A stretch of DNA of 64,000 bases from a virus, in the IMG/VR virus record IMGVR_UViG_3300017987_000005, positions 119,649 through 183,648 of that record; one strand, given 5' to 3'. Below, one piece after another: positions 19,081 through 60,554 of this stretch. A model generated the notes under the pieces. It saw nothing but the letters and a program-made list of their open reading frames with translations, made no database searches and was not told the origin of the DNA. The stretch's first letter is position 1; each line of letters begins with the position of its first letter. The translations under genes were made by a program, and so were the position numbers.

Positions 19081-19695
19081 TTATCCGAAGAGGCGTACGT
19101 TACGTACTTGCGGATTCGGGGGAACTTCCCCTCCGGTCATGGCAAATGATGCCATGTTTTTCTTACGACCTCTTCCTCCACCGCCAAAAGCGAATGTTAT
19201 TCCGCTTACATCTTTTTCTTTCCGGTCTTCTTCAGACATCTTCCCGATAAGGGCGTAGATATCACGACCGAGCCTGATAATACGAATACTGTCCACCTTA
19301 ATATTAGAATTAAGGATGAACTCACGTCCTTCGTCCCTGTCCACAACTTCGGCATCATCCAAACCTGCGGTAACTGATTCGCGAAGAACACGGAACTTCT
19401 TGTCATACTCACGACGAGTTTCCGAGTAGTTCCTAAGCACGATAACTGATAGCGGAACAAAGTCCTCAATCTTATTATCATGTCTGTAAATGCTGTCGGC
19501 ACTGTAACTCAATGACTTATTAAAGTCGAGCCACGCACTTTTCAAAAACGTCCCACAGGAGGAACACGTAAATCCCTTTCCGGGATATATTCCGTGGTTA
19601 CGTTCTACGTGCCGGAGACAGCATGGACTGATAACCGCGTCATGCATCGGCTTAAAAGTTTTCAGTCTACTCTCCATATTAGTCTCCCATATCAA
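19081..19695 (-). CDS. hypothetical protein with Cys motifs
   Basis: ORF between TerL and portal; PCC and CSSC. Confidence 0.65.
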   Translation of the reverse strand: MIWETNMESRLKTFKPMHDAVISPCCLRHVERNHGIYPGKGFTCSSCGTFLKSAWLDFNKSLSYSADSIYRHDNKIEDFVPLSVIVLRNYSETRREYDKKFRVLRESVTAGLDDAEVVDRDEGREFILNSNIKVDSIRIIRLGRDIYALIGKMSEEDRKEKDVSGITFAFGGGGRGRKKNMASFAMTGGEVPPNPQVRNVRLFG

Positions 19696-22523
19696 ATTAA
19701 GATTACTTGCTGATTGGCGTCGATTTTGCTTCTTTTCTGCTCTCCATCAATCGAGCCGTCCTTATCCTGGTACTGCTCCGGATGCATCTTCCTCAGATTC
19801 GGAGAGCCAGCAAACATTTCAAAATATCTCCAGTTAAGCATAGCACACATCAGAGCATCAGGTCCGTGGTCATCCTTTTTTATCGGCTTACCGTTTCCGT
19901 CAGCACGGTATCTCCTCAACTGAGAAAGTAACTGGTCATTACCTTCTCCGTCTTTAAGAAATTGAAGACGTCCGGTAGTAAGGAACTTCGATACGTTTTG
20001 TATTCCGAACTCTTTCCATTTCTTAAAAACAACAGGAATTACTTTGAACCCTTCTTCATGCAGCTCGCGATTACTGAACTGGTCCGATGAGTCGGCAAAC
20101 ACTACAAAGTTACCGTACTCTTCTCTAAGTTTATTCAGGTATCCGATAATCTCCCCGATTTTTTGCTCATGAAACCATGCTGTCTCGAGAACTCCGACAC
20201 CTATCTCACTTCGAACAGTCATGCATATTGCCGTCTGTCCTACATAACCCCAGTCCAGTCCTACTGATTTCTCAATCTCTTCATACCATGTAATATCTTC
20301 CCACTCCGATTCCGCTAAAGCTTCAATGTCATAAATGCTTCCGTAAAATTTCGGGCGCTCGCATTCAAACTCGACTGTATAAACGCTCGAACCCTCATTT
20401 ACTTTTTTAATATCACATACAGCTTCAAACGACTGGTAACCTTCTGCTTTCCGCGCAGTTCCGTTGCATCCTTTTACGGTCGTTCCGATTACGCGTCCGC
20501 GCTCATCGTGTTCATTCACTACCTCAGACAAATAACAGTCGGCGCAGTCGATATCAAGTTCACACTTGACCATCGTGTCGTACACAGACCATTTATATCT
20601 AGTAAATCCATGAGTCTCTGCGTCGTCCCAATACTCCTGGAAAAATCCTTCAGGATGATGAAACGTACTGAGTATGAGGATAAGATGTTCCGGCTGAGTA
20701 AGTGCGTTCTGGAGAGCTGTTTTCATCACTTCGCCGGCTTTCAAGTCTTCCTGACAGTTATGCACAACAGCATTCATCATCATAAATGATTCACCGTCTT
20801 TGACTTCTATATCCCACACTTCTCCGGAATAATGCCTAGACTCTACGCTTTTAACAGGGACAGCAATATAATTATCAATCTCCACCCATGAATTAAAAGC
20901 CTTCTGCTTTCTATCAGAATCATCGGTATCTGTAAATAAGCTCATTGCCTTTCCATTTATATCAATAACCCATGATTCTTTAGTACAGTACTCTTTACCA
21001 CGTATATTAGATATTTTCGCCGGACGCTCTCTATAAGAAGCAGCTACTCCAAGTTTAGCCAGACATGTAAATATAGAAGCTGCCAGGGCTTCTGATGAGG
21101 TCTGTATCGAGGCTCTTTTGCAAACTCCTCCTGAAGAGGCTTTCCCTTCCCATACGGTTCCATCGGAAGCTATAAGTCCGCTTATAACTCCACGGACAAA
21201 ATCTTTAGATTGCCCAGCTATAAAGTCAAAAGGCATTCCTTTTTCTGTAGACTTTGTTCCGAAAGTAGTATCGAGAAAATCTGCTAATTCCTTATGAGTA
21301 AATAAGGCAGTATCAGTATTAATTCTATTCTCAACTGACGAATTATCAAAGCAAACCTCACGCCCAAACAAATCTTTACTTATTGATACATATTCATCTA
21401 TATTACGCTTATCTTTAGAATTGAATACGACATAAATTCCTCTTGAACGCTGTTTACCGGTCCAGCCGTCCCCCAACCAATATCCAAGCCACTTCCCTCC
21501 GTCGTATGTATCAGCGAGTATACAATCATCTATATCGCTCGTCTTTATTTTTGGAATGAGGACATAATCTCTATCACTTATATCTTCGGCGTGAACCCAC
21601 TCAGCACTAGACTCGTTAACAGAATCTTTTCTTTTTGGATTTCCTTTATCGAGTCCTCGAATTATCTTTACTCTGTGGTCATGAGTCAACTCTAATCCTG
21701 TAGACCATCCATTAAGTGATATATTTACTACTCGATTATCCCAATCCTTGCTCCATACATTCTTAACAGAAGTTATAATTCCATCTTGATTGACTACACA
21801 ATCTCCTGGAACAACATCTTCCACGTTAATAATCCCACGCTCTGTAATTACTTTCGAACCTGGGAGTAAACACCCCTCATCAATAATAAGACCGGAATCG
21901 TGACGACTCCGGACCTGCTTATCGGTCGCATTGATACAATGGAGCTTTGCTCCATTATAAAAATGCGTTCTGGATATCAAAGGGTCACCATCTATAAGAT
22001 ACTGATAAACCTGGGGGTTACAACTACAAAACTCGACAACTTTTTCATAAATTGAACGAGCCTGACTACCAGAACCAGCAAGGTTGGTGAACTCTTTTGA
22101 CTTGTAAACCATCATCAAAAAGATGAGTACTGCGGCTGATGTGCTTCCTCCTCCGCCGCGAGATTTCCAGAGGATAGCTTTATTAACACGTTCGTAAAAA
22201 ATGTCAGCGATAAGACGACGTGCTTCAGGGACTAGTTTAATGTATTGGCGTTTTCCATCTTTGACTAAATAAAGTGTTGACGATACAAAATCATAGATGG
22301 CTTGCTGTTGTCTAAGTGCGTGTTCTTTATCTGACTCGGTGTGTCGTTTGTTAACGAGTTCTTCGCCGAGCAAGTCGGCAAATCCATGCTCCAGGGGTGA
22401 GCGCACTTTCTTTATTTCAAGAAGACGGCTCTCCATGACACGCAGAGCTTCTAGCGCATCACTTTTTTCCGCTGACCCATGAAGGGACTCAATTGTTGAA
22501 GTTTTGTCCGGCACCCTCGTCAA
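19692..22523 (-). CDS. terL: terminase large subunit containing an intein
   Basis: SRGGGGS Walker A variant, LIIDE Walker B, ST motif, GLDWG and DHGPDAL nuclease motifs. Confidence 0.92.
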   Translation of the reverse strand: MTRVPDKTSTIESLHGSAEKSDALEALRVMESRLLEIKKVRSPLEHGFADLLGEELVNKRHTESDKEHALRQQQAIYDFVSSTLYLVKDGKRQYIKLVPEARRLIADIFYERVNKAILWKSRGGGGSTSAAVLIFLMMVYKSKEFTNLAGSGSQARSIYEKVVEFCSCNPQVYQYLIDGDPLISRTHFYNGAKLHCINATDKQVRSRHDSGLIIDEGCLLPGSKVITERGIINVEDVVPGDCVVNQDGIITSVKNVWSKDWDNRVVNISLNGWSTGLELTHDHRVKIIRGLDKGNPKRKDSVNESSAEWVHAEDISDRDYVLIPKIKTSDIDDCILADTYDGGKWLGYWLGDGWTGKQRSRGIYVVFNSKDKRNIDEYVSISKDLFGREVCFDNSSVENRINTDTALFTHKELADFLDTTFGTKSTEKGMPFDFIAGQSKDFVRGVISGLIASDGTVWEGKASSGGVCKRASIQTSSEALAASIFTCLAKLGVAASYRERPAKISNIRGKEYCTKESWVIDINGKAMSLFTDTDDSDRKQKAFNSWVEIDNYIAVPVKSVESRHYSGEVWDIEVKDGESFMMMNAVVHNCQEDLKAGEVMKTALQNALTQPEHLILILSTFHHPEGFFQEYWDDAETHGFTRYKWSVYDTMVKCELDIDCADCYLSEVVNEHDERGRVIGTTVKGCNGTARKAEGYQSFEAVCDIKKVNEGSSVYTVEFECERPKFYGSIYDIEALAESEWEDITWYEEIEKSVGLDWGYVGQTAICMTVRSEIGVGVLETAWFHEQKIGEIIGYLNKLREEYGNFVVFADSSDQFSNRELHEEGFKVIPVVFKKWKEFGIQNVSKFLTTGRLQFLKDGEGNDQLLSQLRRYRADGNGKPIKKDDHGPDALMCAMLNWRYFEMFAGSPNLRKMHPEQYQDKDGSIDGEQKRSKIDANQQVILI
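20757..21872 (-). mobile_element. intein (372 aa) with LAGLIDADG endonuclease
   Basis: G|CLLPGSKV...LTHDH...VVHN|C splice motifs; LGYWLGDG and SGLIASDG blocks. Confidence 0.95.
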
Positions 22524-24041: not shown

Positions 24042-24539
24042 TTACGCGACGTCTTCCGGTTTATGCGTAACGAGGTCATTCTTGAGTTCAATAATCGTAT
24101 TCGCTAATATCTTAGCAAGCTGCGGAGATAATCCGAAACGCTCGGTATTCTTTTCGATACTCGTCATTATATCCCCATCAGCATGGCGCTCTGTCGCAGC
24201 CCACCAGTCGCAAAGCATCTCGGTAACATCCAGAAGGGTCATGTCCTCAATCCCCTTCTCATGGTGCTCAGGATGGTGCGCATTATTCGCATAATGATGG
24301 TCCAGGGCTGGTTTCATCTCCTTTAAGCACTTCTGATACTCACTGTCAGGATTGACGTCATACGTCATACCGCGTAGTTTTGGAGTATATTTGAGAAACG
24401 TCTCAAACTCCGGCTCTTCCAGCTTACTATCATCATGATGATACGCTCTCATATGCATGCGATTACAGAACTTCAAAATCTTACAGCATACGCTTGAAAT
24501 ATGCTTAAGAGTCTCTTTTATAACATCTCTCTCGTTCAT
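24042..24539 (-). CDS. HD-like protein (DUF5662-type)
   Basis: HHDDSK, HHYANNAHHPEH, EMLCDW. Confidence 0.7.
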   Translation of the reverse strand: MNERDVIKETLKHISSVCCKILKFCNRMHMRAYHHDDSKLEEPEFETFLKYTPKLRGMTYDVNPDSEYQKCLKEMKPALDHHYANNAHHPEHHEKGIEDMTLLDVTEMLCDWWAATERHADGDIMTSIEKNTERFGLSPQLAKILANTIIELKNDLVTHKPEDVA

Positions 24540-24567: not shown

Positions 24568-25119
24568 TCAATCATCAAAAATATCACTATATCCATAATC
24601 GACAGGTATCCCGTCTCCGAGCGAAACATCGCTATAATGCTCCTTAAACCACTCAGAATCGGCTATGCGGTCATACCGCGCTTTAAGGCTAGTATCACGT
24701 CTCGATTTACGGAGCTGCATCAGAAGGCGTCCTAACATGTTCTGACCGAACCCTCGAATAAGGTCAAACCCCCAAAAAGCATCTCCCCAGGTATTCCCCT
24801 CAACAAGCAGCGAATCCCCGGTAGAAAGCAGCCGGCGCTCCATTTCCGGATAACTGAATTTCGAATGCAAAACCTTAGCCATTACCGGTATTTTTATGCA
24901 TTCCCAGTCATCACGAAGAATAACTCTCCTCCCACGCTTTTTCGCGGACCCTGGTGATGGTGCGTCTACGATATCTTGGCGACGCTCGGCGTCCAACGTC
25001 TTCTCACGCTGGTATGCATGTTCCCCGGACTTAAGCAGCTCTCCGTCCATCTCAAACTCCATCTCGTAAAAGTTTGACAGGAAAAAGTACTTTCCTTTGA
25101 ATTCAAGAATCGGCTTCAT
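24568..25119 (-). CDS. NADAR family protein
   Basis: FLSNFY, SGEHAYQ..K, AKKRGR, KF...LLSTG..LVEGNTWGDAFWG, GQNMLGRLLM. Confidence 0.93.
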   Translation of the reverse strand: MKPILEFKGKYFFLSNFYEMEFEMDGELLKSGEHAYQREKTLDAERRQDIVDAPSPGSAKKRGRRVILRDDWECIKIPVMAKVLHSKFSYPEMERRLLSTGDSLLVEGNTWGDAFWGFDLIRGFGQNMLGRLLMQLRKSRRDTSLKARYDRIADSEWFKEHYSDVSLGDGIPVDYGYSDIFDD

Positions 25120-25525
25120 CTTGCGATTCCTTCTCCGGAATACTTTTGTCCTGCGGAGGTTCGTCCACCTTGATATCCTTCGGAGGCGCTGCGTGCTGAG
25201 ACGGGGCTTGAGGCACTTTCGGCTTCTTGGGAACTATGATAACTTTGAACTCATCCCCTATCGACTTAAAGCACTTAGCGCAATACAATCCGATTATATT
25301 GTTATGCTTTACAAGCTCCCAATGAGCGCCGCAGCATTTTGAATGCATGTAGATATTATCTCCGGCAATGCATTTACATACTATCCGAGGCTTATCGTGC
25401 TCCTCACACCACCCACAATGGTCATGCCCAGGTACTCCGACAATCTCACAATTAACTCGTGATAATTCATCTTCAGTAGGTTCCCGACCAACTTTCTCAA
25501 TAAACTCCTCTTTCGTTATAGGCAT
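25103..25525 (-). CDS. hypothetical Cys/His-rich protein
   Basis: GH..CGWC..H, CC, CAKC. Confidence 0.65.
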   Translation of the reverse strand: MPITKEEFIEKVGREPTEDELSRVNCEIVGVPGHDHCGWCEEHDKPRIVCKCIAGDNIYMHSKCCGAHWELVKHNNIIGLYCAKCFKSIGDEFKVIIVPKKPKVPQAPSQHAAPPKDIKVDEPPQDKSIPEKESQDEADS

Positions 25526-25528
25526 AAA

Positions 25529-25720
25529 TCATTTCTCCTGATTACTGCGTTTTTCGATATGCTCAACTTCCACCTGATGACGTGCTGCCCATCCCGCTTT
25601 CCACCCGAGCTTCCAAGCTCCATATAAAAGCGCGGACAAAATAAGAACAGAAATAAACAGCGGTCCCGCAACAGCCATCCAGCACAACGGGTCTTTCCAA
25701 CTCCAATTATACAAACTCAT
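25529..25720 (-). CDS. small membrane protein
   Basis: One hydrophobic helix; ATG 25720. Confidence 0.55.
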   Translation of the reverse strand: MSLYNWSWKDPLCWMAVAGPLFISVLILSALLYGAWKLGWKAGWAARHQVEVEHIEKRSNQEK

Positions 25721-25723
25721 GAC

Positions 25724-25870
25724 TAATCCTTGACGTCCCACATAACGTCTTCGATATCTTCCTCGACAGCTTCAACGTTAATGTCGTCGTCCTTTCCATA
25801 CGCTCCCGATTCGACCTTGTCAAGAATTTCCCTGAGCCCCTCAGCTAACGTTTTCTGTAATCCGCCCATC
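25724..25870 (-). CDS. small acidic hypothetical protein (48 aa, not in the ORF track)
   Basis: MGGLQKTLAEGLREILDKVESG...WDVKD*, fills the gap after pncB. Confidence 0.55.
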
Positions 25871-27047
25871 ATATCACTTTCTTCAAATAGTCCACATAAT
25901 CCTTATCCCGACACATCTCCTTCCCCGTAGAATCGGACAGCTTTGCTACAGGCTGAAGATTCTCGGGGTCTCTGCCGGCTTCAATAACTTTCATTACAAT
26001 CTGAATCGGTTCTGGCCCGAGGTTGTTTGTCAAATGAGTCCCAACTCCATAAGCATCTTTTATACGTCCCCGGACATAGGTATGAATCTTGGCAACATTC
26101 TTGAAATCCAATCCATCACTGAATACAGCGCTCTTCGTTGTGGGGTCGATTCCCATATCTTCGTAATGACGGATGACTTTCTCTACCCAGTCAGTTGGGC
26201 TCCCGGAATCCTGACGAACTCCATCGAACAGCTTTGCAAAATACATGTCGAAGTCTTTGAGGAATTTCTGCAATCCTAGGGTGTCCGACAAAGCAATCCC
26301 CAGGTCGCCACGATACTCGTCAGCCCACGTCTGGAGCGCGTACCGCTGGCTCCATTCCGGCTTCGTCAATGCTTGGCATACTTGGAATACTTCATGCGCC
26401 ATCGTTCCGATAGGCTTAAGTCCGTACTCCTTTGCAAATAGGACGTTACTCGTCCCAATAAATCCGGGGAATATCTCAGGCTGAGTCAGCAACTTTATAA
26501 CGCGCGCATGCCATTCCGGAGAGAATGCGCGTCGCGTTCCGAAATCAGCAAAACTGACTCCCTTCATCGTCTGTATGTTCGATAGACTGGCTGACAGCTT
26601 CTTCTCCCCCTCCTTAAATAACTCGTTGCGGTCTTTAGAAGAACAAAGGTTGTCAAAATATAACGCATTAACTGTACGTAGAATATAAATCTCATACAAA
26701 ATAGTCTGCACCCACGGCCCTTCGACAATAATGCTGAGTCCTTCCGAATCAGAATCGCTGATGTGTACATATCTTGAATGAAGCTTGAACGTTCTGAGGA
26801 AATCAATAAAATCGCGCTTCATAAATCTCAGGTCACGGAGATACATCAACTCATCTTCCTTGAAGCTCAGACGATTCATGTAATTTATCTCGTCCTGTAT
26901 CCGGGCTTTAATAGGAGAAAAATCCACTCCCTCAGTCCGGCACTTAAACGCATACTTCACGTATACGTCAGGGCACTGATGCAAAGCAAACTGCATCATT
27001 GTGAGTTTATATAAATCGGTATCTAGTAAACTACGTATCACTGGCAT
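25869..27047 (-). CDS. pncB: nicotinate phosphoribosyltransferase
   Basis: SLLDTDLYKLTM, DFGTRR, GTSNV, GTMAHE, GVRQDSG, FSDGL, AKLSD. Confidence 0.95.
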   Translation of the reverse strand: MPVIRSLLDTDLYKLTMMQFALHQCPDVYVKYAFKCRTEGVDFSPIKARIQDEINYMNRLSFKEDELMYLRDLRFMKRDFIDFLRTFKLHSRYVHISDSDSEGLSIIVEGPWVQTILYEIYILRTVNALYFDNLCSSKDRNELFKEGEKKLSASLSNIQTMKGVSFADFGTRRAFSPEWHARVIKLLTQPEIFPGFIGTSNVLFAKEYGLKPIGTMAHEVFQVCQALTKPEWSQRYALQTWADEYRGDLGIALSDTLGLQKFLKDFDMYFAKLFDGVRQDSGSPTDWVEKVIRHYEDMGIDPTTKSAVFSDGLDFKNVAKIHTYVRGRIKDAYGVGTHLTNNLGPEPIQIVMKVIEAGRDPENLQPVAKLSDSTGKEMCRDKDYVDYLKKVI

Positions 27048-27402
27048 CTTCTTCTCCTAAATGTCCGTGCATCCTTTTCCACTCTTTGATGTACTGAGCA
27101 TGCTGTTCCGGATAAAAGTGTTCTATAAAATCAATCAGACGATAATCGTGTGGCTCGTCAGTAAATATATCTCCTGTCGTATCTGTAAAACAAAATATCT
27201 CGTTTTCAAAATGATGTTCGCTTTTGTGCTTCCCGCAGTTCCCGCATATCGGGTCCTCGATACATTCCAAAGCAGTGAAGCACATCTCAGTCAACTGCTG
27301 CATACGCTCATCGTCATTCAACAATATCTCGACAAGCTTGAGGACGCGGCACTTCGCAGAACGTCGCGCATTCCGCAACTTCCATGAGGCAAAACTTCCC
27401 AT
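27031..27402 (-). CDS. hypothetical protein
   Basis: Packed ORF; CGNC. Confidence 0.6.
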   Translation of the reverse strand: MGSFASWKLRNARRSAKCRVLKLVEILLNDDERMQQLTEMCFTALECIEDPICGNCGKHKSEHHFENEIFCFTDTTGDIFTDEPHDYRLIDFIEHFYPEQHAQYIKEWKRMHGHLGEEDASDT

Positions 27403-27403
27403 C

Positions 27404-27802
27404 TTATTTCCCGTACCACATATAGGCGGGCTTTATAGCAACGATAGCATAAAAATCGTCATCAACATGCCCCCAGTCCTCGCAATAAACTCTCCATCCG
27501 AGTTCGTTGCTTCCGTCATGGTCAGCATTCGCGTCCCAATCCTTCATCTCGATATCCTCGGCTTTTTCAAGATACTTCTTAACTGCGGGAAACACTTCCT
27601 CTGCGGTAAGCTCTGACGGGAACTGGTTATAATTCTCCGGACTTGAATCCGGAATAGTCCAGCATAAAATGAGTCCATGCTTCTTAGTTTCCCTCCACGC
27701 ATTAGCAGTCGTGTTCCGCCCCTCCTGAGCAAACGCGAGCTTCAACGTTTGGAGTAGAAGTTCGTCTCCGGTCCCGTTGACATTAAATACTCTGTTATCC
27801 AT
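27404..27802 (-). CDS. hypothetical protein
   Basis: Packed ORF. Confidence 0.65.
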   Translation of the reverse strand: MDNRVFNVNGTGDELLLQTLKLAFAQEGRNTTANAWRETKKHGLILCWTIPDSSPENYNQFPSELTAEEVFPAVKKYLEKAEDIEMKDWDANADHDGSNELGWRVYCEDWGHVDDDFYAIVAIKPAYMWYGK

Positions 27803-28416
27803 TACTCACTACCTACACTCAAAAATTCATTAATAACTCCCATATCAGGCTCTTTCGCGTAGCTTCGCGGGTCGTTATATTCTGGCTTAAAATATTTTAT
27901 AAAAGCAGATTCCACTGCGTCTAGTCTAGTTTTCGGGACATGCATATAAAATACATAATTAAAATCCTTATCTTCACGATGCCTCTCTATACGCGTAGGC
28001 AGCGACGTAGTCTGACCAACATACACTATTAACTTATCGCGCACAAGAAAATAAACGCACGGAGGAAAATACCCTAACGGATATTCTTTCAAACACTCAA
28101 ATAACGGCTGTATCCCATAAGGTAAATCAGTCGGCACTAAGCTTCTTGGATTATTCGTAATAACCTGTATACAATTAGGCGGTAACGGAGAACCTTTGTA
28201 ATGGTGAATCATGTTAACTTTTATCCAATCTCGAATCGCCCTCAACTCAAACACGGGCTCTGGATGAATGTCAACCTTAACACATGGCGCAAAACCTTGT
28301 TCCGCTAACTCTACTAGTCGAGAAGGGCTAATAAAATCTTTTAATCCTTTTGGCAATTTTGCACACACCTCTTCTGCCGTATACAGTGACGGTATCGTCG
28401 TATTTCCTCTAGCCAC
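27802..28416 (-). CDS. GIY-YIG-like nuclease with N-terminal HTH-like domain
   Basis: CVYFL...VYVGQT..L..RI..H, E..FI...PEYN. Confidence 0.75.
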   Translation of the reverse strand: MARGNTTIPSLYTAEEVCAKLPKGLKDFISPSRLVELAEQGFAPCVKVDIHPEPVFELRAIRDWIKVNMIHHYKGSPLPPNCIQVITNNPRSLVPTDLPYGIQPLFECLKEYPLGYFPPCVYFLVRDKLIVYVGQTTSLPTRIERHREDKDFNYVFYMHVPKTRLDAVESAFIKYFKPEYNDPRSYAKEPDMGVINEFLSVGSE

Positions 28417-28604
28417 TAGTCTACGCTCCTCTCATTATCGAACCACTTCTTTTTCGGTTCTTCGGCTCTATGAAAATCACCGTGATAATCTATGCACGGC
28501 TTCGTCTTCCTGCACGACTCGCACAGCCCAACTGATACGTTCGGCATTATAAACCAGAACGTATCTACTCCGTTCTCAATGCAACACTTCTCGCAGATAA
28601 ACAT
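28416..28604 (-). CDS. small Zn-binding protein ending in WFDN
   Basis: CEKC, CESC. Confidence 0.6.
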   Translation of the reverse strand: MFICEKCCIENGVDTFWFIMPNVSVGLCESCRKTKPCIDYHGDFHRAEEPKKKWFDNERSVD

Positions 28605-28909
28605 TAATAATCTTCATCAATAATATCATTAGGGTCAAGAGGATTTTCAGTCGGGTCGTAATCATCCGGATTCAGCTCATCATCCTCATCATCCATATGA
28701 CTACGGTCATCGAGCATCTGAATCGCTGCTACGGCTGAGCCGCGTATCGATTCGAAAAAATCCCGAAGCTCATCCTCATCAGTAATCGCATGATACGACT
28801 TTGCCATGATTTCCTCAAAATCATCAAAAAGCTTATCGTAATTTTCACTGCTTTCTCCAGCAGTCCGGTCCTCACTCATCACCATTCTCCCGCACATACT
28901 TAAATCCAC
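28604..28909 (-). CDS. acidic hypothetical protein
   Basis: Packed ORF; start probably ~28885. Confidence 0.55.
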   Translation of the reverse strand: MDLSMCGRMVMSEDRTAGESSENYDKLFDDFEEIMAKSYHAITDEDELRDFFESIRGSAVAAIQMLDDRSHMDDEDDELNPDDYDPTENPLDPNDIIDEDY

Positions 28910-29150
28910 GAGTGGGAGGCTTAGTCGGAGCTTTATAATCTACTTTCTTTAACGGCTCCATTACAATACGTCCAGGCTCGATGCTTATAACTTCCCCTTC
29001 AGCATGTACTCTCCCTTTATACGCAAACATAACTTTATCATACTCAAATAACTGGCGGGGCGTTCCCGACACGTCCCACCAACACTCATAAATATCAGAA
29101 GCCGTCTTATGTTCCACTACCTCCGGCTTGGCATGAATAATGATATCCAT
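28872..29150 (-). CDS. hypothetical protein (PUA/ASCH-like?)
   Basis: MDIIIH start; C-terminal PPTRGFKY. Confidence 0.5.
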   Translation of the reverse strand: MDIIIHAKPEVVEHKTASDIYECWWDVSGTPRQLFEYDKVMFAYKGRVHAEGEVISIEPGRIVMEPLKKVDYKAPTKPPTRGFKYVRENGDE

Positions 29151-29151
29151 A

Positions 29152-29547
29152 CTACATTCCTTTTCCGTCGTTAAACCATTCCCCGTTAGCTTCCACTTTG
29201 TTCCCGCTCTTCTGGCGCTCCGCCCAACGTACTCCGGCATCAAACGCTTCTTCCGGAGTAGGTCTTCCGTCAGATGCACGCCCTAGCATCGGATGCTGGC
29301 ACATAAATAATTTCTCCACACGAAGACGTACTTCATGGCCATAATATCCCGCTACGTATCCAAGATTTTTCCGCTCTATGCTCTCAGCTTCTACTCTGGA
29401 TTTTCCAGCTATTCGCATAGTATGTTCGACAAGCACTTCGAAATACTCGTCAGCAGTAGCTTGGTCCATTATCGACATAGCAGGTTTATACTTCTCTCCG
29501 AGAGTAGTCTCATCAGGAAGTCTCTCGGGCAGTACTACTTTCTCCAT
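29152..29547 (-). CDS. hypothetical protein ending in WFND
   Basis: NLGYVAGYYG; packed after nadE. Confidence 0.65.
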   Translation of the reverse strand: MEKVVLPERLPDETTLGEKYKPAMSIMDQATADEYFEVLVEHTMRIAGKSRVEAESIERKNLGYVAGYYGHEVRLRVEKLFMCQHPMLGRASDGRPTPEEAFDAGVRWAERQKSGNKVEANGEWFNDGKGM

Positions 29548-30284
29548 TACTCGTCCACCCTTCCTAAAAGTTTCTCATCAACAAAACAACACGGAGGCAT
29601 CTGACGCTTATGTTGGCTCTGCAACATGCGCTTCGATAATGTCCCATCCTGGCAATCAATTCCTGCTAGCGCCCTATCCATCTGAGTATACGTCATTCCG
29701 ATTTCCTTCTCATCCGTCTGCCCTTCCCATAATCCGGCTGAAGGTGCTTTTGTGAGGATTCGCTCGGGAACTCCGAGATGCTCAGCAAACTTTCGAACAT
29801 GAGTCTTATATAGACTTCCAATAGGTTCGATGTCAACTCCCCCATCCCCATATTTCGTATAATACCCGAGTTCTATCTCAGTCAGATTGCTCGTCCCGGC
29901 TACAAGATAATTGCAAGTGTTTGCAACGTAATACAGGGCACACATACGAAGACGCGATTTCAGATTTGCTCTGGCAAGCTTACAATCAAACGTTTCCGGG
30001 AACAGCTTGAGCATACTATTATACGTATCTCCGAGTTCCACTACTTCGGAATAGATGGCAAACGTACTGCACAGCGTAGCTGCGTCAATCCCATCATCAT
30101 CCAAAGACTCGCACGGCATTATCAGCCCGGTCACATTTTCGTCAAACTCGCGCTTACATAGGACGGCAGTAACAGCAGAGTCTATTCCACCACTCACTCC
30201 GACTACGACTCCCCGTGCTCCTGCTTTTGTTACTCGCTCCCTCATCCATCGCTGAATGGTATCGGCTACTTTCTCACATTGCAT
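29547..30284 (-). CDS. nadE: NH3-dependent NAD+ synthetase
   Basis: GVSGGIDS, NLKSRLRM, GYYTKYGDG, KAPSAGLWEGQTDE, HKR. Confidence 0.96.
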   Translation of the reverse strand: MQCEKVADTIQRWMRERVTKAGARGVVVGVSGGIDSAVTAVLCKREFDENVTGLIMPCESLDDDGIDAATLCSTFAIYSEVVELGDTYNSMLKLFPETFDCKLARANLKSRLRMCALYYVANTCNYLVAGTSNLTEIELGYYTKYGDGGVDIEPIGSLYKTHVRKFAEHLGVPERILTKAPSAGLWEGQTDEKEIGMTYTQMDRALAGIDCQDGTLSKRMLQSQHKRQMPPCCFVDEKLLGRVDE

Positions 30285-30862
30285 TACTCTTCTCCTTTGG
30301 TGACTGCTTCCAGCTCTGCGATTACGGCTCCTTTTTCTTCCATCTCCTGAAGAGCTTCGTCAGAACTCTTTTCATCCACTCCGGCAATAGCATCGCGAAC
30401 TACAGTGACTTCGATTCCACGTTCCAGGAGTCCGAGTACAGCAGATTTCACGCAGTAATCGGTCGCTACTCCGTAAACAACGGCTGAAGAGACTTTCTTA
30501 TCCTTAAGATATTTGACAATCTCATCGTTGCCGCCCTTCTCAGCAAACACGTCGTACGTATTCTTGCGGAATATATCTGCGTCGTTATTCTTAGTTTCCT
30601 GAATAGACTTCGCTCCCGCTGTTCCGCACATGCAATGCTCAGGAAACGGTCCGCCATTGACCTCAAGCTCACCCTCAACGTCTTTATACGCAGGAGTTCC
30701 AAAATGAACGTCCATTGTCTTCACAACCTTAATGCCTTTCTCGACAGCATAATCATTCAGTCGCTTAAGAGCTGGTTTTATAGATTCGGCATTCGGAACA
30801 TATAGTGCTCCTCCCTCATTCATAAAATCTCTCTGAGTATCCACGTCTACAAAAATCAACAT
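30284..30862 (-). CDS. pncA: nicotinamidase (cysteine hydrolase)
   Basis: VDTQRDF..GGALYVP, D.H, FPEHC..GT.GA, K, GVATDYCV. Confidence 0.92.
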   Translation of the reverse strand: MLIFVDVDTQRDFMNEGGALYVPNAESIKPALKRLNDYAVEKGIKVVKTMDVHFGTPAYKDVEGELEVNGGPFPEHCMCGTAGAKSIQETKNNDADIFRKNTYDVFAEKGGNDEIVKYLKDKKVSSAVVYGVATDYCVKSAVLGLLERGIEVTVVRDAIAGVDEKSSDEALQEMEEKGAVIAELEAVTKGEE

Positions 30863-31200
30863 GGTAATTCTCCTTCAAAACAAGTGCGATACATCAAGCA
30901 CCGTAACTTACATTTTTCAATATGGTCTATCAATATACTCTGCACAATACAAGGCAGCATGTTTGCTTTATTTTCGAGGTCAATCTGATGCTCCTTATAA
31001 TACTCATAAGCAAGTATTATAATAACTGCGTCAGTGCAACCGGTGGGACGCACATGGTCTTTAAGTTCTTCCATGTGCGCCTCCACCCAGTCAAGATATC
31101 CTTTGAAGAATCCCGGCTCGGTTTTAATGCGAATATTCTGTTTGCTCCAAACAATATATTCTTCCAGTTCAGGTCTATTCCGAGGTCCAGGTCCTTCCAT
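30856..31200 (-). CDS. hypothetical protein
   Basis: Packed ORF. Confidence 0.5.
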   Translation of the reverse strand: MEGPGPRNRPELEEYIVWSKQNIRIKTEPGFFKGYLDWVEAHMEELKDHVRPTGCTDAVIIILAYEYYKEHQIDLENKANMLPCIVQSILIDHIEKCKLRCLMYRTCFEGELPC

Positions 31201-31203: not shown

Positions 31204-32022
31204 TCAATCCATAAAAACAACGTTAGAACGAGAAATAGAAAGAGCTTCCGTATTCACAATTACTTCGTGCCAAATATTCCCCAGGTCTACAGTAGCGTGT
31301 TCGATGTGACGGATTTTCCCTTTCACAAACGCACGCATTCCAGTAGTACGCTGGTCCCATCTTCCGCGCGCTCTTTCGTCGCGCTCTTTCACGAGTTTAT
31401 TATACTTGTGAACATCTACCCCTTCTGGAAAATTCGTATGGAAGTAACGAGTAGTTCCTCCCGTACGATACAAAAAATCAGCGACATGCGGATTCCCGCG
31501 CTGAGCTAAAGGCTCCTTTTTCTGAACGAGCCAATCCTTCACAGCCATATCAGGCATGGGAACAAAAGTAAACTCCCCCTGACGATGAATGGTTCCTCCG
31601 GCAGCTTTACGATGACGCTTCTGACGGTTTTTACGTTTTACTCCGCGCTTATTTTCTATTTCGCGAAGTGCAGCAGGTTTCAAAGCTTCTTTAGCTTCTG
31701 CTACGTTAGAAGCTCCCGCAGTCTCAGGAATAGCTGCGGTAAACCAGTGGCGTTCATCGTGTCCACACAGAAAACGCGCTTTAGGATTCTCCGGGTCACG
31801 AACCATTATAAGAAGATGGCGGTCTTTGGGTTTTACGTCAAGAATCTGAGTTCCGACTCCATCACGAAGAAGAATTTCAAAGAACTCTCCTTTGCGGTCA
31901 CGGCGAACATCCATAGCAACATTCCCGTCCATGCGCGTACGACGTACCCACCGCACATCATCGGAAACGCGCTCAACTTTTACGCGCGCCCCCATTTTCT
32001 CAAATGCAGTGTTAATATTCAT
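31204..32022 (-). CDS. hypothetical protein
   Basis: FLCGHDERHWF, RQGEF.FVP, H.EH. Confidence 0.7.
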   Translation of the reverse strand: MNINTAFEKMGARVKVERVSDDVRWVRRTRMDGNVAMDVRRDRKGEFFEILLRDGVGTQILDVKPKDRHLLIMVRDPENPKARFLCGHDERHWFTAAIPETAGASNVAEAKEALKPAALREIENKRGVKRKNRQKRHRKAAGGTIHRQGEFTFVPMPDMAVKDWLVQKKEPLAQRGNPHVADFLYRTGGTTRYFHTNFPEGVDVHKYNKLVKERDERARGRWDQRTTGMRAFVKGKIRHIEHATVDLGNIWHEVIVNTEALSISRSNVVFMD

Positions 32023-32025: not shown

Positions 32026-32373
32026 TTATCCTCGAAACGGAGAAGATGGCGGCCCACCAGGAGGCATTTCTCCGGGCAGTATGATTCGATTATCCAACTT
32101 ATGTTTCAAGTCTTTCTGCGCTTCGTCTGCTAACTCATCAAACTTCTCAAACGCTTCCTCGATAAATCTGGCGGGTATGTCGAAATCAATCGGCATACTC
32201 ATTTCAGCCGGGCCCATCGGAGTATCCGTCATACGGGCTAATCCAGTGTGTCCAACATAGCGGGTCACAGGATTCTTCGGGTCAACACGCATAAACATAG
32301 TAATCAAGTCAACTCGTCCATCAGGCATAGTCCTTTTGAATACGCGAAGCTCTTCGATAATCGGGTCGCTCAT
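32026..32373 (-). CDS. hypothetical protein
   Basis: Packed ORF with RBS. Confidence 0.65.
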   Translation of the reverse strand: MSDPIIEELRVFKRTMPDGRVDLITMFMRVDPKNPVTRYVGHTGLARMTDTPMGPAEMSMPIDFDIPARFIEEAFEKFDELADEAQKDLKHKLDNRIILPGEMPPGGPPSSPFRG

Positions 32374-55602: not shown

Positions 55603-56006
55603 TCAAACTTGTCGAGAGACATAAATATCTGTCTCTCAAACCCTTCCGACTTGAACCAGAGATAATCCCCGTGCTCCTTAACGGCTGACACGGTAGTCGT
55701 ATACGTCCTTCCTCCGTCATCATCAATAATGAGCATGACTATCGTCTCGTCCGGCAAACACTGAACGATGTGGTCGTTCAATCCCCACGCATCGGCTTTA
55801 CGGAAACGGTGTTTCTTCTTGAGATGCTTGATATAATGAAGATGCGAATTCACTGACTTAATCTGTCCGATATCTCTCCCCCGCGATTCTGAATGAAGCT
55901 TCAATGTTATATGTCCATAGTTGCTCACATCAATACGATTCCCCGATTTATCGGAACCGACAATAGCTGCTTTCAGCTTCATCGCATCTTCTTTTGTAAA
56001 ACTCAT
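55599..56006 (-). CDS. hypothetical protein
   Basis: GFERQIF. Confidence 0.65.
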   Translation of the reverse strand: MSFTKEDAMKLKAAIVGSDKSGNRIDVSNYGHITLKLHSESRGRDIGQIKSVNSHLHYIKHLKKKHRFRKADAWGLNDHIVQCLPDETIVMLIIDDDGGRTYTTTVSAVKEHGDYLWFKSEGFERQIFMSLDKFE

Positions 56007-56539
56007 ATCAGGTCAATCCCAAATAATCCATATCCCGGCATCCCGAGCAGTCGCGCAAGTCTCTTTATACCATCAGCTAATTTACGATTCAATCCCGCTG
56101 CTCTGGCAAATACTGGAAGGGCTTCCAAAGCGTACTCTCGGGCTTTAGTCTCCTGTCCCTGGAAAAAGAAATCTTCCGTATTCGTAATCCGGTCAACAGC
56201 TTTGACTATAACGGCTTCGTTTAATCCATTCTCTGCTAGGTCCGCTAAGAACGCTTTCTTATCCTTCTTGTCTTTATCGTCCAGCGTTACTTGAGCTACG
56301 ATGCTGGCAACGGTGTTCCCGAACATGTCGCGGATATCATCAATAGTATGGTCGGAATCCTCGACAACATCATGAACCGCCATCGCAACAAGCATCTTCT
56401 CGTTATCAATCCCGAAATTCGACATGTAGCGGACTCCGGCAGTACAATGCGTCAGATACGGTATCCCCGTAAACTTACGCGTCTGGTTATAATGCGCTTT
56501 CATCGCAAATTCGATTGCTTTTTTCAACTCTTCCATCAC
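56003..56539 (-). CDS. stand-alone HD hydrolase, SpoT/Mesh1-like
   Basis: AH..QTRK..G.PY..H, HDVVED, VK..DR..N. Confidence 0.85.
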   Translation of the reverse strand: MMEELKKAIEFAMKAHYNQTRKFTGIPYLTHCTAGVRYMSNFGIDNEKMLVAMAVHDVVEDSDHTIDDIRDMFGNTVASIVAQVTLDDKDKKDKKAFLADLAENGLNEAVIVKAVDRITNTEDFFFQGQETKAREYALEALPVFARAAGLNRKLADGIKRLARLLGMPGYGLFGIDLI

Positions 56540-57372
56540 TCGTCTCTTTTCCGGTTTTTCAGATAACCCTCAATCACAAAATAAAGTCTCGAGATTGTCC
56601 CGTCAGTAAAATAGTTCATAGAGTTCACGCTCGTCTTAACAGTTCTCCAGAACACGACGGGCATCCCGTAAATATCGTATACTTCAGCATCCTCCCACAG
56701 CTTGTCAGTCATTCTGAATGCTCTGCTTATAGTCGTATACGTACGCTCGAACGCGGCAACGTCCGGCGCGAGGTCTTTCTCTCTCGTGTCAGTACTAACA
56801 CGGCGTACTTGTACGTAAGGTATTTTTCCCGGAAGTTCTGATATCCTGTGAAGCGTATCAAAGAATTCATGCTCATTGCATCGATTAAGTACAATAGATA
56901 TCCGGGCTTCTTCGGTCTGACGCATTATCTCATCCCAGTCAGGGATGTCGCGTCTTCCGAGAATCATCTGGTTAGTAATTGGATTGAATGAATGTATGGA
57001 GTACCCGATTTCATCTTTACAAAGTTTAATAGACTCCATCGCGTCAAGCGCTTTGTATCCGTTTGTCCGAATCCCGCACGTGAACCCACGTTCCTGAATA
57101 TGTTCTATCAGCCACGGTAAGTGCGGGTACAAAAGCGGGTCGGTATTCTGTCCGGTCAGGTATATCTTTTTTATTCCCTCGTGCTCAGCAATAGTAAGAA
57201 ACTCGTCAAAATTCTTCCAGTCATTGAAGTGTACTTTCAATTGGTTTTGCTTACACAATATATCCTCAATATCTTTCCCGAGACAGAAAAAACAATCAAC
57301 GTTGCATTTTCCAAGCAGGTTGATATTCGCAAACGTATAAGCATCCCGCTCCCTGTTCTTATCATTGCTCAT
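56536..57372 (-). CDS. radical SAM protein
   Basis: CNVDCFFC, LTG..DPL, TNG. Confidence 0.85.
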   Translation of the reverse strand: MSNDKNRERDAYTFANINLLGKCNVDCFFCLGKDIEDILCKQNQLKVHFNDWKNFDEFLTIAEHEGIKKIYLTGQNTDPLLYPHLPWLIEHIQERGFTCGIRTNGYKALDAMESIKLCKDEIGYSIHSFNPITNQMILGRRDIPDWDEIMRQTEEARISIVLNRCNEHEFFDTLHRISELPGKIPYVQVRRVSTDTREKDLAPDVAAFERTYTTISRAFRMTDKLWEDAEVYDIYGMPVVFWRTVKTSVNSMNYFTDGTISRLYFVIEGYLKNRKRDE

Positions 57373-58542: not shown

Positions 58543-58617
58543 TGGTATCCCCGGATGGAATCGAACCATCATCTAAAGCTTAGGAGGCTTTCGTAATATC
58601 CATTATACTACGGGAAC
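58543..58617 (-). tRNA. tRNA-Arg(CCT)
   Basis: Cloverleaf, AAAGC-CTCCTAA-GCTTT, CCA. Confidence 0.9.
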
Positions 58618-58618
58618 A

Positions 58619-58693
58619 TGGTACTCCCTGAAGGAATCGAACCCTCATCATCAGCTTAGAAGGCTGTTGCACTTTCCGTTGTGCTAAGGGAGC
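58619..58693 (-). tRNA. tRNA-Arg(TCT)
   Basis: Cloverleaf, CT-TCT-AA, CCA. Confidence 0.9.
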
Positions 58694-58694
58694 A

Positions 58695-58772
58695 TGGTGG
58701 ACGGGGTTGGATTTGAACCAACGACTCCTGCATTTTCAGTGCAGAGCTACTACCTGGCTGAGCTACCCGTCC
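58695..58772 (-). tRNA. tRNA-Phe(GAA)
   Basis: CTGCA-CTGAAAA-TGCAG, CCA. Confidence 0.9.
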
Positions 58773-59227
58773 TCTTCATTTCTATCTTCCTCATGGTCAT
58801 TATCGGTCTGCACAGTGCATCCCAACTTATTAACCTCGTCACACACATCTTTAAGAAATTCTCTCGTACCGTCACTGGCGTATGACTCCCATCCTTTTTC
58901 GTAATCCCTCGGATTAATCCATCCGAATATGCTGAAATCCTGGACGTATTCGAGTCTCTTAAATCCGCGTTCCTCAAACTCATTAATAAATCTTCGGTCG
59001 GTAACAACTTCTGACGAACGCACAGTCGGTTGACGATGCTTGCGCTCACTACTACTATAAAGTCTGTAATGACGCGCGATAGCTTCCTCTTCAAGAAGGC
59101 TATATATTCGAGCGAAGACTTCTACAGAAATCTTATAGAACTCATCATAGCTGAGTCGCTCTTCGTGCGTCACAATTACACAGCTACTATCTTCAGGAGA
59201 ACCGTAACCAAAACGATAACAATACAT
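58763..59227 (-). CDS. hypothetical protein within the tRNA array
   Basis: AGGAG RBS; 154 aa. Confidence 0.6.
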   Translation of the reverse strand: MYCYRFGYGSPEDSSCVIVTHEERLSYDEFYKISVEVFARIYSLLEEEAIARHYRLYSSSERKHRQPTVRSSEVVTDRRFINEFEERGFKRLEYVQDFSIFGWINPRDYEKGWESYASDGTREFLKDVCDEVNKLGCTVQTDNDHEEDRNEEDG

Positions 59228-59244
59228 GCATCTCCTTTTCTATC

Positions 59245-59319
59245 TGGTAGGCGCGGGAAGAGTTGAACTTCCGTTAGAAGTTTATAAGACTTCCGTTCTT
59301 ACCGTTGAACTACGCGCCA
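59245..59319 (-). tRNA. tRNA-Ile(TAT)
   Basis: GAAGT-CTTATAA-ACTTC, CCA; 1:72 mismatch. Confidence 0.88.
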
Positions 59320-59555
59320 GCTAAAGGTATAAGCTTATCCTCAGCGACAAGCAAATAACAACGATTTCCATCATCCATCTTAAAAGTACAAGGCCACGAA
59401 ACTCCCCAATGAGACGCACTCCACGACTCACGTGGTTCGTCTTTAATGGTCAGGTCTTCATAATCACGTTCTACATGCTTGACCTTCTGACCTATTCGGA
59501 AATCCTTTTTGACTCGAAATGTCCCGCATAATTTTCCAACAAACGACTCACCCAT
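59310..59555 (-). CDS. hypothetical protein
   Basis: AGGAG RBS. Confidence 0.55.
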   Translation of the reverse strand: MGESFVGKLCGTFRVKKDFRIGQKVKHVERDYEDLTIKDEPRESWSASHWGVSWPCTFKMDDGNRCYLLVAEDKLIPLAGA

Positions 59556-59574
59556 AACCCGCTCCTTTAATATC

Positions 59575-59652
59575 TGGTGGGCCCACAGGGATTTGAACCC
59601 CGGACACGCGCATTATGAGTGCGACGCTCTAACCAGACTGAGCTATGGGCCC
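59575..59652 (-). tRNA. tRNA-Ile2(CAT)
   Basis: GGGCCCA acceptor typical of Ile2, CT-CAT-AA, CCA. Confidence 0.8.
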
Positions 59653-59664
59653 GTGATAAATAAA

Positions 59665-59743
59665 TGGTCCTGCGAGGAGGATTTGAACCTCCGACCTCCT
59701 CCTTATCAGGGAGGCGCTACTAACCGGGCTGAGCTACCGCAGG
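59665..59743 (-). tRNA. tRNA-Ile(GAT)
   Basis: CCTCC-CTGATAA-GGAGG, CCA. Confidence 0.9.
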
Positions 59744-59746
59744 ATA

Positions 59747-59820
59747 TGGTTGCCCTACAGGGATTTGAACCCCAACTAATTGATTCAGAGTCAATCGTGC
59801 TACCGTTACACTATAGGGCA
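59747..59820 (-). tRNA. tRNA-Gln(CTG)
   Basis: ATTGA-CTCTGAA-TCAAT, CCA. Confidence 0.9.
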
Positions 59821-59899
59821 AAATACAGGGTTGCTGCAAAGCGCAACCCCAACTCCTTCTGCTCTTACATCAAAAATAAATGGCAGATGAGATAATATA

Positions 59900-59975
59900 T
59901 GGTGGGCGCGAGAGGATTCGAACCTCCGACTTCTTGCTTGTAAGGCAAGCGCTCTAGCCGCTGAACTACGCGCCC
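59900..59975 (-). tRNA. tRNA-Val(TAC)
   Basis: CTTGC-CTTACAA-GCAAG, CCA. Confidence 0.92.
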
Positions 59976-59977
59976 AA

Positions 59978-60055
59978 TGGCGAGGGTGACGGGACTCGAA
60001 CCCGCAAACTTCCTGCTCGACAGGCAGGTGCTCTACGCTATTGAACTACACCCCC
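59978..60055 (-). tRNA. tRNA-Asp(GTC)
   Basis: CCTGC-CTGTCGA-GCAGG, GCCA. Confidence 0.92.
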
Positions 60056-60065
60056 GTGTAATAAC

Positions 60066-60276
60066 TGGTGAGCATGACGGGATTCGAACCCGCACCGCAG
60101 CATTTAGGCCCAGCCGCTCATTAAGCTTTCCACTCTTTTCTCCCGTATATCCCTTCATCACTGCTTCCTCACCACAGAGCGAACTCTGGTCCCAGGTGTG
60201 ATAGACAGGTCAGCGAGCACTTACGGGTGCCTCGACAGGTCCACTTAAATCGTTCTACCAATTAAACTACATGCTC
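60066..60276 (-). ncRNA. tRNA-like RNA with ~130-nt structured insert replacing the anticodon loop
   Basis: GAGCATG/CATGCTC-ACCA, D arm, GCGGG-TTCGAAT-CCCGT; ATTTA/TAAAT stem encloses the insert. Confidence 0.8.
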
Positions 60277-60281
60277 AAACA

Positions 60282-60417
60282 TGGTCGCCAGCGGGGAGGT
60301 TCTCACTCCCATAGGCGGCTAACTCCTATTCAATCTCGATTCGAATCACCCGCAGCCGACGCGGTACACTTCGAATCTACAGCAGGGAATCGGTCACCCT
60401 GCTTGGCATCGCTGGCA
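60282..60417 (-). ncRNA. expanded tRNA-like RNA without a canonical anticodon loop
   Basis: GCCAGCG/CGCTGGC-GACCA, AGCAGGG/CCCTGCT, GATTCGAA/TTCGAATC, ATAGG/CCTAT, GGGAG-TGAGAAC-CTCCC. Confidence 0.75.
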
Positions 60418-60434
60418 TATAATTTTCAAAGAAC

Positions 60435-60511
60435 TGGTTACCCCGGAAGGATTTGAACCTTCAACAGCGACATTCAAAGTGTCGTGCTCTAGCCAATTGA
60501 GCTACGGGGTA
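60435..60511 (-). tRNA. tRNA-Gln(TTG)
   Basis: CGACA-CTTTGAA-TGTCG, CCA. Confidence 0.9.
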
Positions 60512-60554
60512 TTATATATTTACGAAAGAACAACTGCAAACGATTGCAAAAAAA

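Follow-up and report, generated by a model that had tools for sequence, protein, structure and literature searches.

Depletion of nicotinamide adenine dinucleotide (NAD+) is among the commonest abortive-infection strategies of bacteria, and every enzyme that cleaves NAD+ (NADase), including the SIR2/TIR-type NADases of defence systems, releases nicotinamide. For phages, three routes to rebuild NAD+ are in the literature, each presented as a notable finding: NARP1, composed of Adps and Namat, and NARP2, composed of Nampt and Nmnat, where the rebuilding of NAD+ defeats NADase defences (bioRxiv 10.1101/2024.02.11.579819), and NARP3, composed of PnuC and NadR, which restores NAD+ for phages as well (PMC13464706). 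In the text of the first of these reports, the terms PncA, NadE, NadD, nicotinamidase and 'deamidat' do not occur. As to the deamidating (Preiss-Handler) enzymes, the arrangement 'nrtR-nadD<#>pncA-pncB-nadE' is given for Pseudomonas aeruginosa and P. fluorescens (PMC2330246, Table 1), and the host pncA-pncB1-nadE operon was the most strongly induced one upon infection with PA5oct (PMC7318152). Among gut jumbo phages, 174 of 668 encode all salvage or Preiss-Handler genes, with pncB-nadD-nadE found in Kuafu_71 and phage pncA also mentioned (PMC11662467, 2024). Here we analysed the last 64 kb (positions 119,649 to 183,648; hereafter the window) of IMG/VR virus record IMGVR_UViG_3300017987_000005, a single contig of 183,648 bp, in which genes for PncA, NadE and PncB are found, and the balance of the evidence favours a phage that carries a partial Preiss-Handler NAD+ salvage set plugged into the pathway of its host. 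The genes concerned are the following:

30284..30862, minus strand: PncA, short-form nicotinamidase of 192 amino acids (PF00857 and motifs; nicotinamide to nicotinate and NH3)
29547..30284, minus strand: NadE, NH3-dependent NAD+ synthetase of 245 amino acids (PF02540, NF010587; nicotinate adenine dinucleotide (NaAD), NH3 and ATP to NAD+)
27031..29547, minus strand: seven small open reading frames (ORFs) between NadE and PncB, with a GIY-YIG-like ORF at 27802-28416 among them
25869..27047, minus strand: PncB, canonical nicotinate phosphoribosyltransferase of 392 amino acids (NF003704, TIGR01514; nicotinate and phosphoribosyl pyrophosphate (PRPP), with ATP, to nicotinate mononucleotide (NaMN))

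The original prediction for this region had described pncA and nadE as adjacent, with pncB and a NADAR gene close by on one strand and all motifs intact, and this description holds: PncA, NadE, PncB and NADAR are four intact minus-strand ORFs reaching from 24568 (NADAR stop) to 30862 (PncA start). PncA matches PF00857 (E 1e-27, 97.8 bits against a cut-off of 27), its closest match in the PDB is the nicotinamidase of Pyrococcus horikoshii (1ilw, E 3.8e-24) and the top five PDB matches are all nicotinamidases or nicotinamidase-like. Residues D8, K100 and C137 together with D51, H53 and H76 align with the 1ilw motifs VDMQRDF, SK, ATEYC, DWH and RHC; we take the first three to be the catalytic Asp-Lys-Cys triad and the latter three to be the metal-binding Asp/His/His residues. 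NadE is of the short PRK13980 type, a single domain without a glutaminase domain and with the SGGIDS PP-loop motif at residues 31-36; it matches PF02540 (E 2.4e-70), exceeds both NF010587 (257.4 bits, cut-off 255) and TIGR00552 (245.9 against 63.65), and its PDB matches are NH3-dependent NAD synthetases in 11 of 11 cases (3p52 at E 1e-43). A TAATG stop/start overlap is present between PncA and NadE, by which NadE is predicted to be translationally coupled to PncA, and the same overlap is found again between NadE and the next ORF. PncB is full length, comprising the N-terminal PF17767 and catalytic PF04095 domains, lies above the cut-offs of NF003704 (483.9 bits against 379) and TIGR01514 (413.7 against 269.55), and matches 1yir with E 3.2e-90; H218 of its GTMAHE motif (residues 214-219), presumably the phosphorylated histidine, is invariant in our alignment A1 and aligned to 1yir. 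The protein shares approximately 50% identity with PncB of many bacteria and up to 75% with unnamed metagenomic proteins, shows a partial match (E 1e-15) to the PHROG of phage nicotinamide phosphoribosyltransferases and is the sole PF04095 match of the genome. On these families, curated models and motifs the identities of PncA, PncB and NadE stand, and their assignment to deamidating NAD+ salvage, the Preiss-Handler route from nicotinamide that had been proposed for them, can be made with high confidence.

The contig carries an exact 123-bp direct repeat at both termini and has a CheckV completeness of 100%, in keeping with a complete phage genome. The composition of the window is uniform, with a GC content of 0.41-0.51 and a GC skew below zero in all 2-kb bins, and the salvage region is flanked by terminase, portal and ParB-like genes on one side and by HNH endonucleases and a tRNA array on the other: since composition and skew are uniform and phage genes stand on both flanks, we regard the salvage genes as an integral part of the phage. 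Host contamination or misassembly of this region was considered and rejected on the grounds of the complete contig, its terminal repeats, the uniform composition and the phage genes on both sides.

The step that would link PncB to NadE, adenylylation of NaMN to NaAD, is where the set is incomplete. The original prediction had left room for an adenylyltransferase supplied by the host, encoded elsewhere or bypassed, a matter for a genome-wide search for NadD, NadM and Prs-like genes; in such a search (Pfam scanning of the 281 ORFs of at least 60 amino acids in the complete genome, together with six-frame profile searches) we found no NadD, NadM or NadR-type gene, and six-frame searches also gave no Prs-like gene (PF13793), no NUDIX gene, no PnuC gene (PF04973), no second NAPRTase-family gene and no NAD+-dependent ligase. 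One CTP_transf_like (PF01467) gene is present in the entire genome:

C1:24491-25027 of the genome (L003:9491-10027), minus strand, outside the window: CoaD, a phosphopantetheine adenylyltransferase (PPAT) according to TIGR01510 and the PDB

This protein scores 170 bits against TIGR01510 (cut-off 103) and just 25-27 bits against the models of nicotinamide mononucleotide adenylyltransferases (NMNATs), 34 of its 34 PDB matches are PPATs with highly conserved aligned cores, and the gene is situated 120 kb from PncB amid replication genes. Closer to the salvage genes, the ORFs at 25103-25525, 25529-25741, 27031-29547, 30856-31200, 31204-32022 and 32026-32373 gave no match of relevance to an adenylyltransferase in Pfam, NCBIfam or PHROGs, a search of the ESM Atlas with the 272-residue protein encoded at 31204-32022 retrieved unnamed clusters only, and the ORFs of unassigned family that stand beside NadD-less trios in other phages have no homologue in this genome. 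As the sole CTP_transf_like gene is CoaD/PPAT, a host-supplied NadD, normally an essential enzyme of the host, fits best, and it is quite likely that the NaMN to NaAD step is performed in this manner; supply by the host is thus the option that stands, also in view of the 6 of 13 near-complete PncB-bearing phage genomes without such a gene (see below), whilst encoding elsewhere in the genome fails unless CoaD moonlights.

In the mechanism that we propose, PncA would hydrolyse nicotinamide to nicotinate and NH3, PncB would convert nicotinate to NaMN with PRPP and ATP, NadD of the host would adenylylate NaMN to NaAD with ATP, and the NH3-dependent NadE of the phage would complete NAD+ from NaAD with a further ATP; the NH3 set free in the PncA step would match the NH3 used in the NadE step. 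We infer that the flux runs in this direction, with the net effect that nicotinamide would be recycled to NAD+ faster in the infected cell, and a phage-borne copy of these genes would keep this recycling going after shut-off of host transcription.

The closest bacterial counterpart is the NrtR-controlled unit of Pseudomonas (PA4918-4920), which comprises the same three enzymes without nadD in the unit and follows the same route via NadD; the set described here differs in being phage-borne, in the lack of NrtR, in its gene order (PncA-NadE...PncB), in the seven small ORFs inserted and in its NadE being of the short type. The NAD-jumbo phages, such as Kuafu_71 (PMC11662467), and Sinorhizobium phage Phosso likewise encode deamidating NAD+ routes, but their clusters include nadD or an NMNAT, often along with a Nudix gene, and are hence complete, whereas this phage, which at 184 kb also lies under the 200-kb jumbo threshold, is without that step: its sole PF01467 match is CoaD/PPAT rather than the phage-encoded adenylyltransferase for NaMN or nicotinamide mononucleotide (NMN) of a complete Preiss-Handler pathway. 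As in NARP2, nicotinamide would be converted to NAD+ at the expense of PRPP and ATP; however, NARP2 takes the amidated route via NMN, for which it brings two phage enzymes and does not depend on the host, and it has been shown to act against NADase defences, while the route here would pass through nicotinate and host NadD; the genome holds neither a second PF04095 gene nor an NMNAT-type gene. NARP1 also restores NAD+ but reuses ADP-ribose through ADP-ribose pyrophosphate (ADPR-PP); here no PF13793 match, and so no Prs-like gene, was found in six frames and the one gene of the NAPRTase family encodes a canonical PncB. NARP3, finally, restores NAD+ by importing nicotinamide riboside, for which this genome has no PnuC (no PF04973 match) and no NadR-type enzyme (no PF01467 match of that type). 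Novelty, as implied by the original prediction, cannot be maintained for the gene set itself, given that phage Preiss-Handler clusters have been published (PMC11662467) and are annotated in phages in GenBank: the set is a phage Preiss-Handler salvage set in a recurrent NadD-less form, of a kind already described.

In order to assess this recurrence, a profile-guided scan of IMG/VR was performed, which yielded 118 confirmed PncB loci, and the best 80 of these were taken for flank counts by tblastn in up to 10 kb around PncB. PncA-like genes were found in 26 of the 80 loci, NadE in 44 and both in 16; all of these partners are on the strand of PncB and, where both are present, mostly lie less than 3 kb from it. 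As many further viral contigs have these genes next to PncB in the same orientation, the clustering is not due to chance. For the adenylyltransferase, tblastn with two phage NMNAT queries gave matches in 2 of 80 loci and proved too insensitive, so that a PF01467 profile search with NCBIfam typing was used instead; whole records were searched for the 33 loci on contigs of at least 100 kb, covering 32 records (L040 was left out). A PF01467 match was obtained in 16 of the 32 large PncB-bearing records and, among the records that are at least 90% complete, in 7 of 13, with none in the other 6. In the seven complete genomes with a match the best NCBIfam model is that of NadD or NMNAT (above the cut-off in G013, G017, G025 and G033) and these genes usually adjoin PncB; the remaining PF01467 matches in PncB-bearing records were typed as RfaE-like or CoaD-like. 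PncA-like, NadE and PncB genes occur together in five complete genomes, and in three of these records (G004, G021 and G029) the PF01467 search gave no match at all, although the isochorismatase match of G004 is weak (27.5 bits); the complete 203-kb genome G001 contains PncA, a GIY-YIG endonuclease and PncB only, with neither NadE nor a PF01467 match. Complete genomes thus contain the NadD-less form repeatedly. Of the phages in GenBank, Sinorhizobium phage Phosso (PV764938.1) encodes a PncA-like hydrolase, a nicotinamide-nucleotide adenylyltransferase, a MutT-like Nudix protein, PncB and an NH3-dependent NadE within less than 6 kb, and related sets are present in Agrobacterium phage Atu_ph07 and in the 735-kb uncultured phage LR756501; when the 6.3-kb region analysed here was compared with GenBank phages by megablast, no match was obtained. 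Since the gene set has been described computationally and recurs widely, the main addition made by the window is a clean example of the NadD-less form from a complete genome. One further observation from the scan is the NadD-like frame of L097 (G032:C1:81595-82089), which contains two in-frame TAG codons and may reflect either an alternative code or a broken gene.

The selective benefit of the set for the phage may be either escape from NADases or general NAD+ supply. That it measurably counters an NADase defence is possible, though we would put the chances at somewhat below even. In favour of a role in defence, the route begins at nicotinamide, which is the NADase product, and the genome encodes further counter-defence and repair genes: Apyc1, RtcB, Ro/TROVE, RlaP and a SpoT-like HD domain. 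Should phages indeed be rescued by the deamidating route, this would make it the first pathway of counter-defence to be encoded only in part by the phage and to rely on the essential host enzyme NadD, and would explain why NadD is the step that phages most often omit (6 of the 13 near-complete PncB-bearing genomes). Several points weigh against our interpretation. The route leaves ADP-ribose unused, consumes PRPP and several ATP for each NAD+ made and needs a host enzyme, for which reasons it is possibly slow when set against a fast NADase; a literature search returned no experiment on any phage set of deamidating PncA, PncB and NadE; approximately 2.5 kb of unrelated ORFs split the three genes and, because a promoter and terminator scan performed no better on this region than on shuffled sequence, it lends no support to their co-expression (over 23.9-34.3 kb, 22 promoter-like and 8 terminator-like sites were found against 17.9 and 7.9 in shuffles); PncA falls under the cut-off of the curated nicotinamidase model (NF008623, 78.9 bits against 174), so that its substrate is deduced from its motifs; and NadE alone is common in cyanophages and pelagiphages, which points to general cofactor supply rather than evasion of defence.

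This last point leads to the rival explanation that survives best, in which the three genes are ordinary auxiliary metabolic genes that provide NAD+ for replication in a nutrient-poor host, with no specific role in immunity. Homologues of NadE, PncB and PncA are indeed scattered over marine and jumbo phages with varied partners, the presence of CoaD in this genome and of a CoaE-CoaD pair between PncB and NadE in another phage (L050) suggests general cofactor provisioning, such genes have been interpreted as serving independent NAD+ synthesis for propagation (PMC11662467), and the host pncA-pncB1-nadE operon is induced by a phage without involvement of defence (PMC7318152). On the other hand, a special demand of this phage for NAD+ is not evident, as neither an NAD+-dependent ligase (six-frame search) nor an ADP-ribosyltransferase (Pfam scans) was found; moreover, the starting point of the route is a product of NAD+ cleavage, and the three other phage NAD+ routes (NARP1, NARP2 and NARP3) have been shown to be counter-defences. 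We therefore consider a purely metabolic role a serious but rather less probable explanation, with roughly one chance in three at the most.

Far less probable is a self-sufficient pathway in which the CoaD-like protein of the phage (C1:24491-25027) moonlights as NaMN adenylyltransferase. It is the sole nucleotidyltransferase of the right fold in the genome, and phages with PncB repeatedly carry CoaD-like genes: next to PncB in L050, less than 6 kb away in L087/L088 (L087:4050-4730) and L091, and elsewhere in the genome in G028. In L050, CoaD occupies the place expected for NadD, and a search of that record (79% complete) gave no NadD; however, CoaD is paired there, at L050:11351-12431 between PncB and NadE, with CoaE, a dephospho-CoA kinase, as fits true coenzyme A (CoA) synthesis, and L091 has CoaD (L091:4462-4884) 5 kb from a full PncA-PncB-NadE-NadD operon, that is, together with a genuine NadD. 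For the protein of this phage, the CoaD equivalog score, the low scores with NMNAT models, the PPATs that make up all of its PDB matches with their conserved cores and the distant location of the gene amid replication genes all argue against such a second activity, which we regard as improbable. The linkage of CoaD to phage NAD genes suggests either that phages bundle late-step CoA and NAD genes or that they have repurposed an adenylyltransferase.

Very improbable, in our judgement, is that the PncA-like protein, as a hydrolase of the isochorismatase family, acts on a different substrate and that the genes do not form one pathway. Whilst the family is functionally diverse and the score lies under the cut-off of the nicotinamidase equivalog model, which has the longer enterobacterial form as its basis, the Asp-Lys-Cys triad and the metal-binding Asp/His/His are all aligned, the best PDB matches are nicotinamidases, and both the predicted translational coupling to NadE and the PncA-like genes near PncB or NadE in 26 of the 80 loci speak for the same pathway. 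The bypass that the original prediction had entertained, in which PncB takes an ADPR-PP-like donor and makes NaAD directly in the manner of Namat in NARP1, can practically be dismissed: nothing but the shared phosphoribosyltransferase superfamily and the missing NadD speaks for it, whereas no Prs/Adps-like gene that could make ADPR-PP was found in six frames and PncB, the only NAPRTase-family gene, is full length, over both curated cut-offs, approximately 50% identical to housekeeping bacterial PncB and only partially matched by the phage nicotinamide phosphoribosyltransferase PHROG.

Downstream of PncB on the same strand are two further genes that had to be considered in connection with NAD+ metabolism:

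24568..25119, minus strand: NADAR protein of the YbiA subfamily, 183 amino acids (PF08719, YbiA 2b3w, Glu signature)
24042..24539, minus strand: DUF5662 protein of 165 amino acids (PF18907, E 1.6e-35), adjoining NADAR

The NADAR protein matches PF08719 (E 6e-21, 75.8 bits against a cut-off of 35.1), E. coli YbiA (2b3w, E 8e-19) and 8bau (E 3e-10), and scores just below the cut-off of TIGR02464 (73.4 bits against 73.7). Residues E107, D113 and W116 are found within LLVEGNTWGDAFWG, with E107 aligning with the Glu of the YbiA 'LVE' and thus at the YbiA-type signature position. This position in the final strand is Glu in YbiA, Asp in DarT1-linked NADARs and His in gp30.3 of T4-like phages; every NADAR type assayed removed ADP-ribose from guanine in vitro, but E. 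coli YbiA failed to rescue cells from the toxicity of DarT1 (PMC11125620, PMC11543638). Orphan phage NADARs neutralise DarTG1 (PMC11825919), and the protein described here resembles these in being free-standing with conserved active-site residues but differs in the Glu at the signature position in place of His or Asp. An identity as DarTG1-type NADAR antitoxin or DS32_2 was rejected (signature Glu rather than Asp; NF053876 at 53.4 bits against 240), and no neighbour resembling an ADP-ribosyltransferase was detected by Pfam. The NADAR gene had been counted as a member of the salvage set, which our data do not bear out: NADAR is beside PncB in 0 of 80 loci and, where present in large records (9 of 32), is always far from PncB. 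Its function is thus most likely separate from that of the salvage genes and may consist in guanine de-ADP-ribosylation or another N-glycosidic cleavage.

DUF5662 is a mainly viral family, with H35-D36, H82, H88-H89 and D111 invariant in our alignment A2. The model of the protein (pLDDT, the predicted local confidence, of 84.9) gave HD or HD-GYP phosphodiesterases in all of the top seven VIA-align rows, with Z scores of 4.6-6.5 that are below the reliable level for helical proteins, whilst Foldseek retrieved nothing at E <= 0.001 and a PDB sequence search only chance-level matches; the predicted fold may be that of an HD-type metal-dependent phosphohydrolase. Across the PncB-bearing records, 13 copies of DUF5662 were found in 12 of 33, five of them less than about 7 kb from PncB (G023/G024, G034, G025 and G027; four copies if the near-identical G023/G024 are merged), where approximately one would be expected from the record lengths, a comparison of 4-5 with one that is uncorrected for shared ancestry. 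DUF5662 is thus a possible accessory of phage NAD clusters and, with the CoaD linkage, one of the two leads that the window adds. In a more speculative reading, which we think unlikely though not negligible, the trio acting via host NadD would be a fourth, part-phage-encoded NAD+ reconstitution pathway against SIR2/TIR immunity with DUF5662 and the CoaD-like protein as undescribed accessories; DUF5662 might, for example, remove an inhibitory nucleotide, or CoaD might carry out the adenylylation.

The seven ORFs between NadE and PncB are without NAD-related matches in Pfam, PHROG or NCBIfam, with the GIY-YIG match of the ORF at 27802-28416 being weak and under its cut-off (E 5e-4). They are probably inserted cargo outside the pathway; in relatives, PncA, NadE and PncB follow each other directly or are interrupted by a homing endonuclease. 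Over 22-34 kb of the window, Pfam gave no vWA, PP2C or kinase domain. The simplest history would be that the phage lineage captured a pncA-pncB-nadE unit into which the small ORFs and homing-endonuclease-like genes were inserted later. In unrelated phages, GIY-YIG/NUMOD genes are found directly beside pncB or pncA (L010:9206-9952, L075:9249-10001, L085:7914-8588, L043:6917-7675 and L065:6161-6706), and mobile endonucleases seem to have landed at phage NAD genes repeatedly. Two of the small minus-strand ORFs, 29152-29547 and 28416-28604, carry the pattern W-F-[NDES]-[ND] within their final 15 residues, which is present in 21 of the 295 ORFs called in the genome. The 272-residue protein encoded directly upstream of pncA (31204-32022, minus strand) belongs to an unnamed family common to phages and bacteria, and a homologue with 38% identity (L086:15972-16676) is located approximately 5 kb from pncB of that viral contig.

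Beyond the salvage region, the genome is that of a contractile-tailed phage as judged by Pfam (sheath, tube, baseplate, portal and a large terminase with an intein), with 246 of its ORFs on the minus strand. Further genes that belong to its rich kit for RNA repair and counter-defence, or that were annotated alongside it, are:

window 41233-42117, minus strand: RlaP
window 56003-56539, minus strand: SpoT-like HD_4 hydrolase
window 56536-57372, minus strand: radical SAM protein
genome C1:2021-3523: Ro/TROVE protein
genome C1:7846-9015: RtcB
genome C1:8993-9874: anti-Pycsar protein Apyc1
genome C1:13641-13997: RF-1-domain (ArfB-like) protein

The large terminase subunit (window 19692-22523, minus strand, 943 amino acids) is split by an intein with a LAGLIDADG endonuclease domain. 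The window also contains 27 tRNA genes on the minus strand, at 44501-44588 and 58543-63910, 26 of which are packed closely at the genome end, with small ORFs in between. Outside the window (C1:71775-75564), a CobT-like VWA protein of 814 amino acids adjoins a CobS/MoxR-like AAA+ ATPase of 393 amino acids, a pair that is frequent in large phages.

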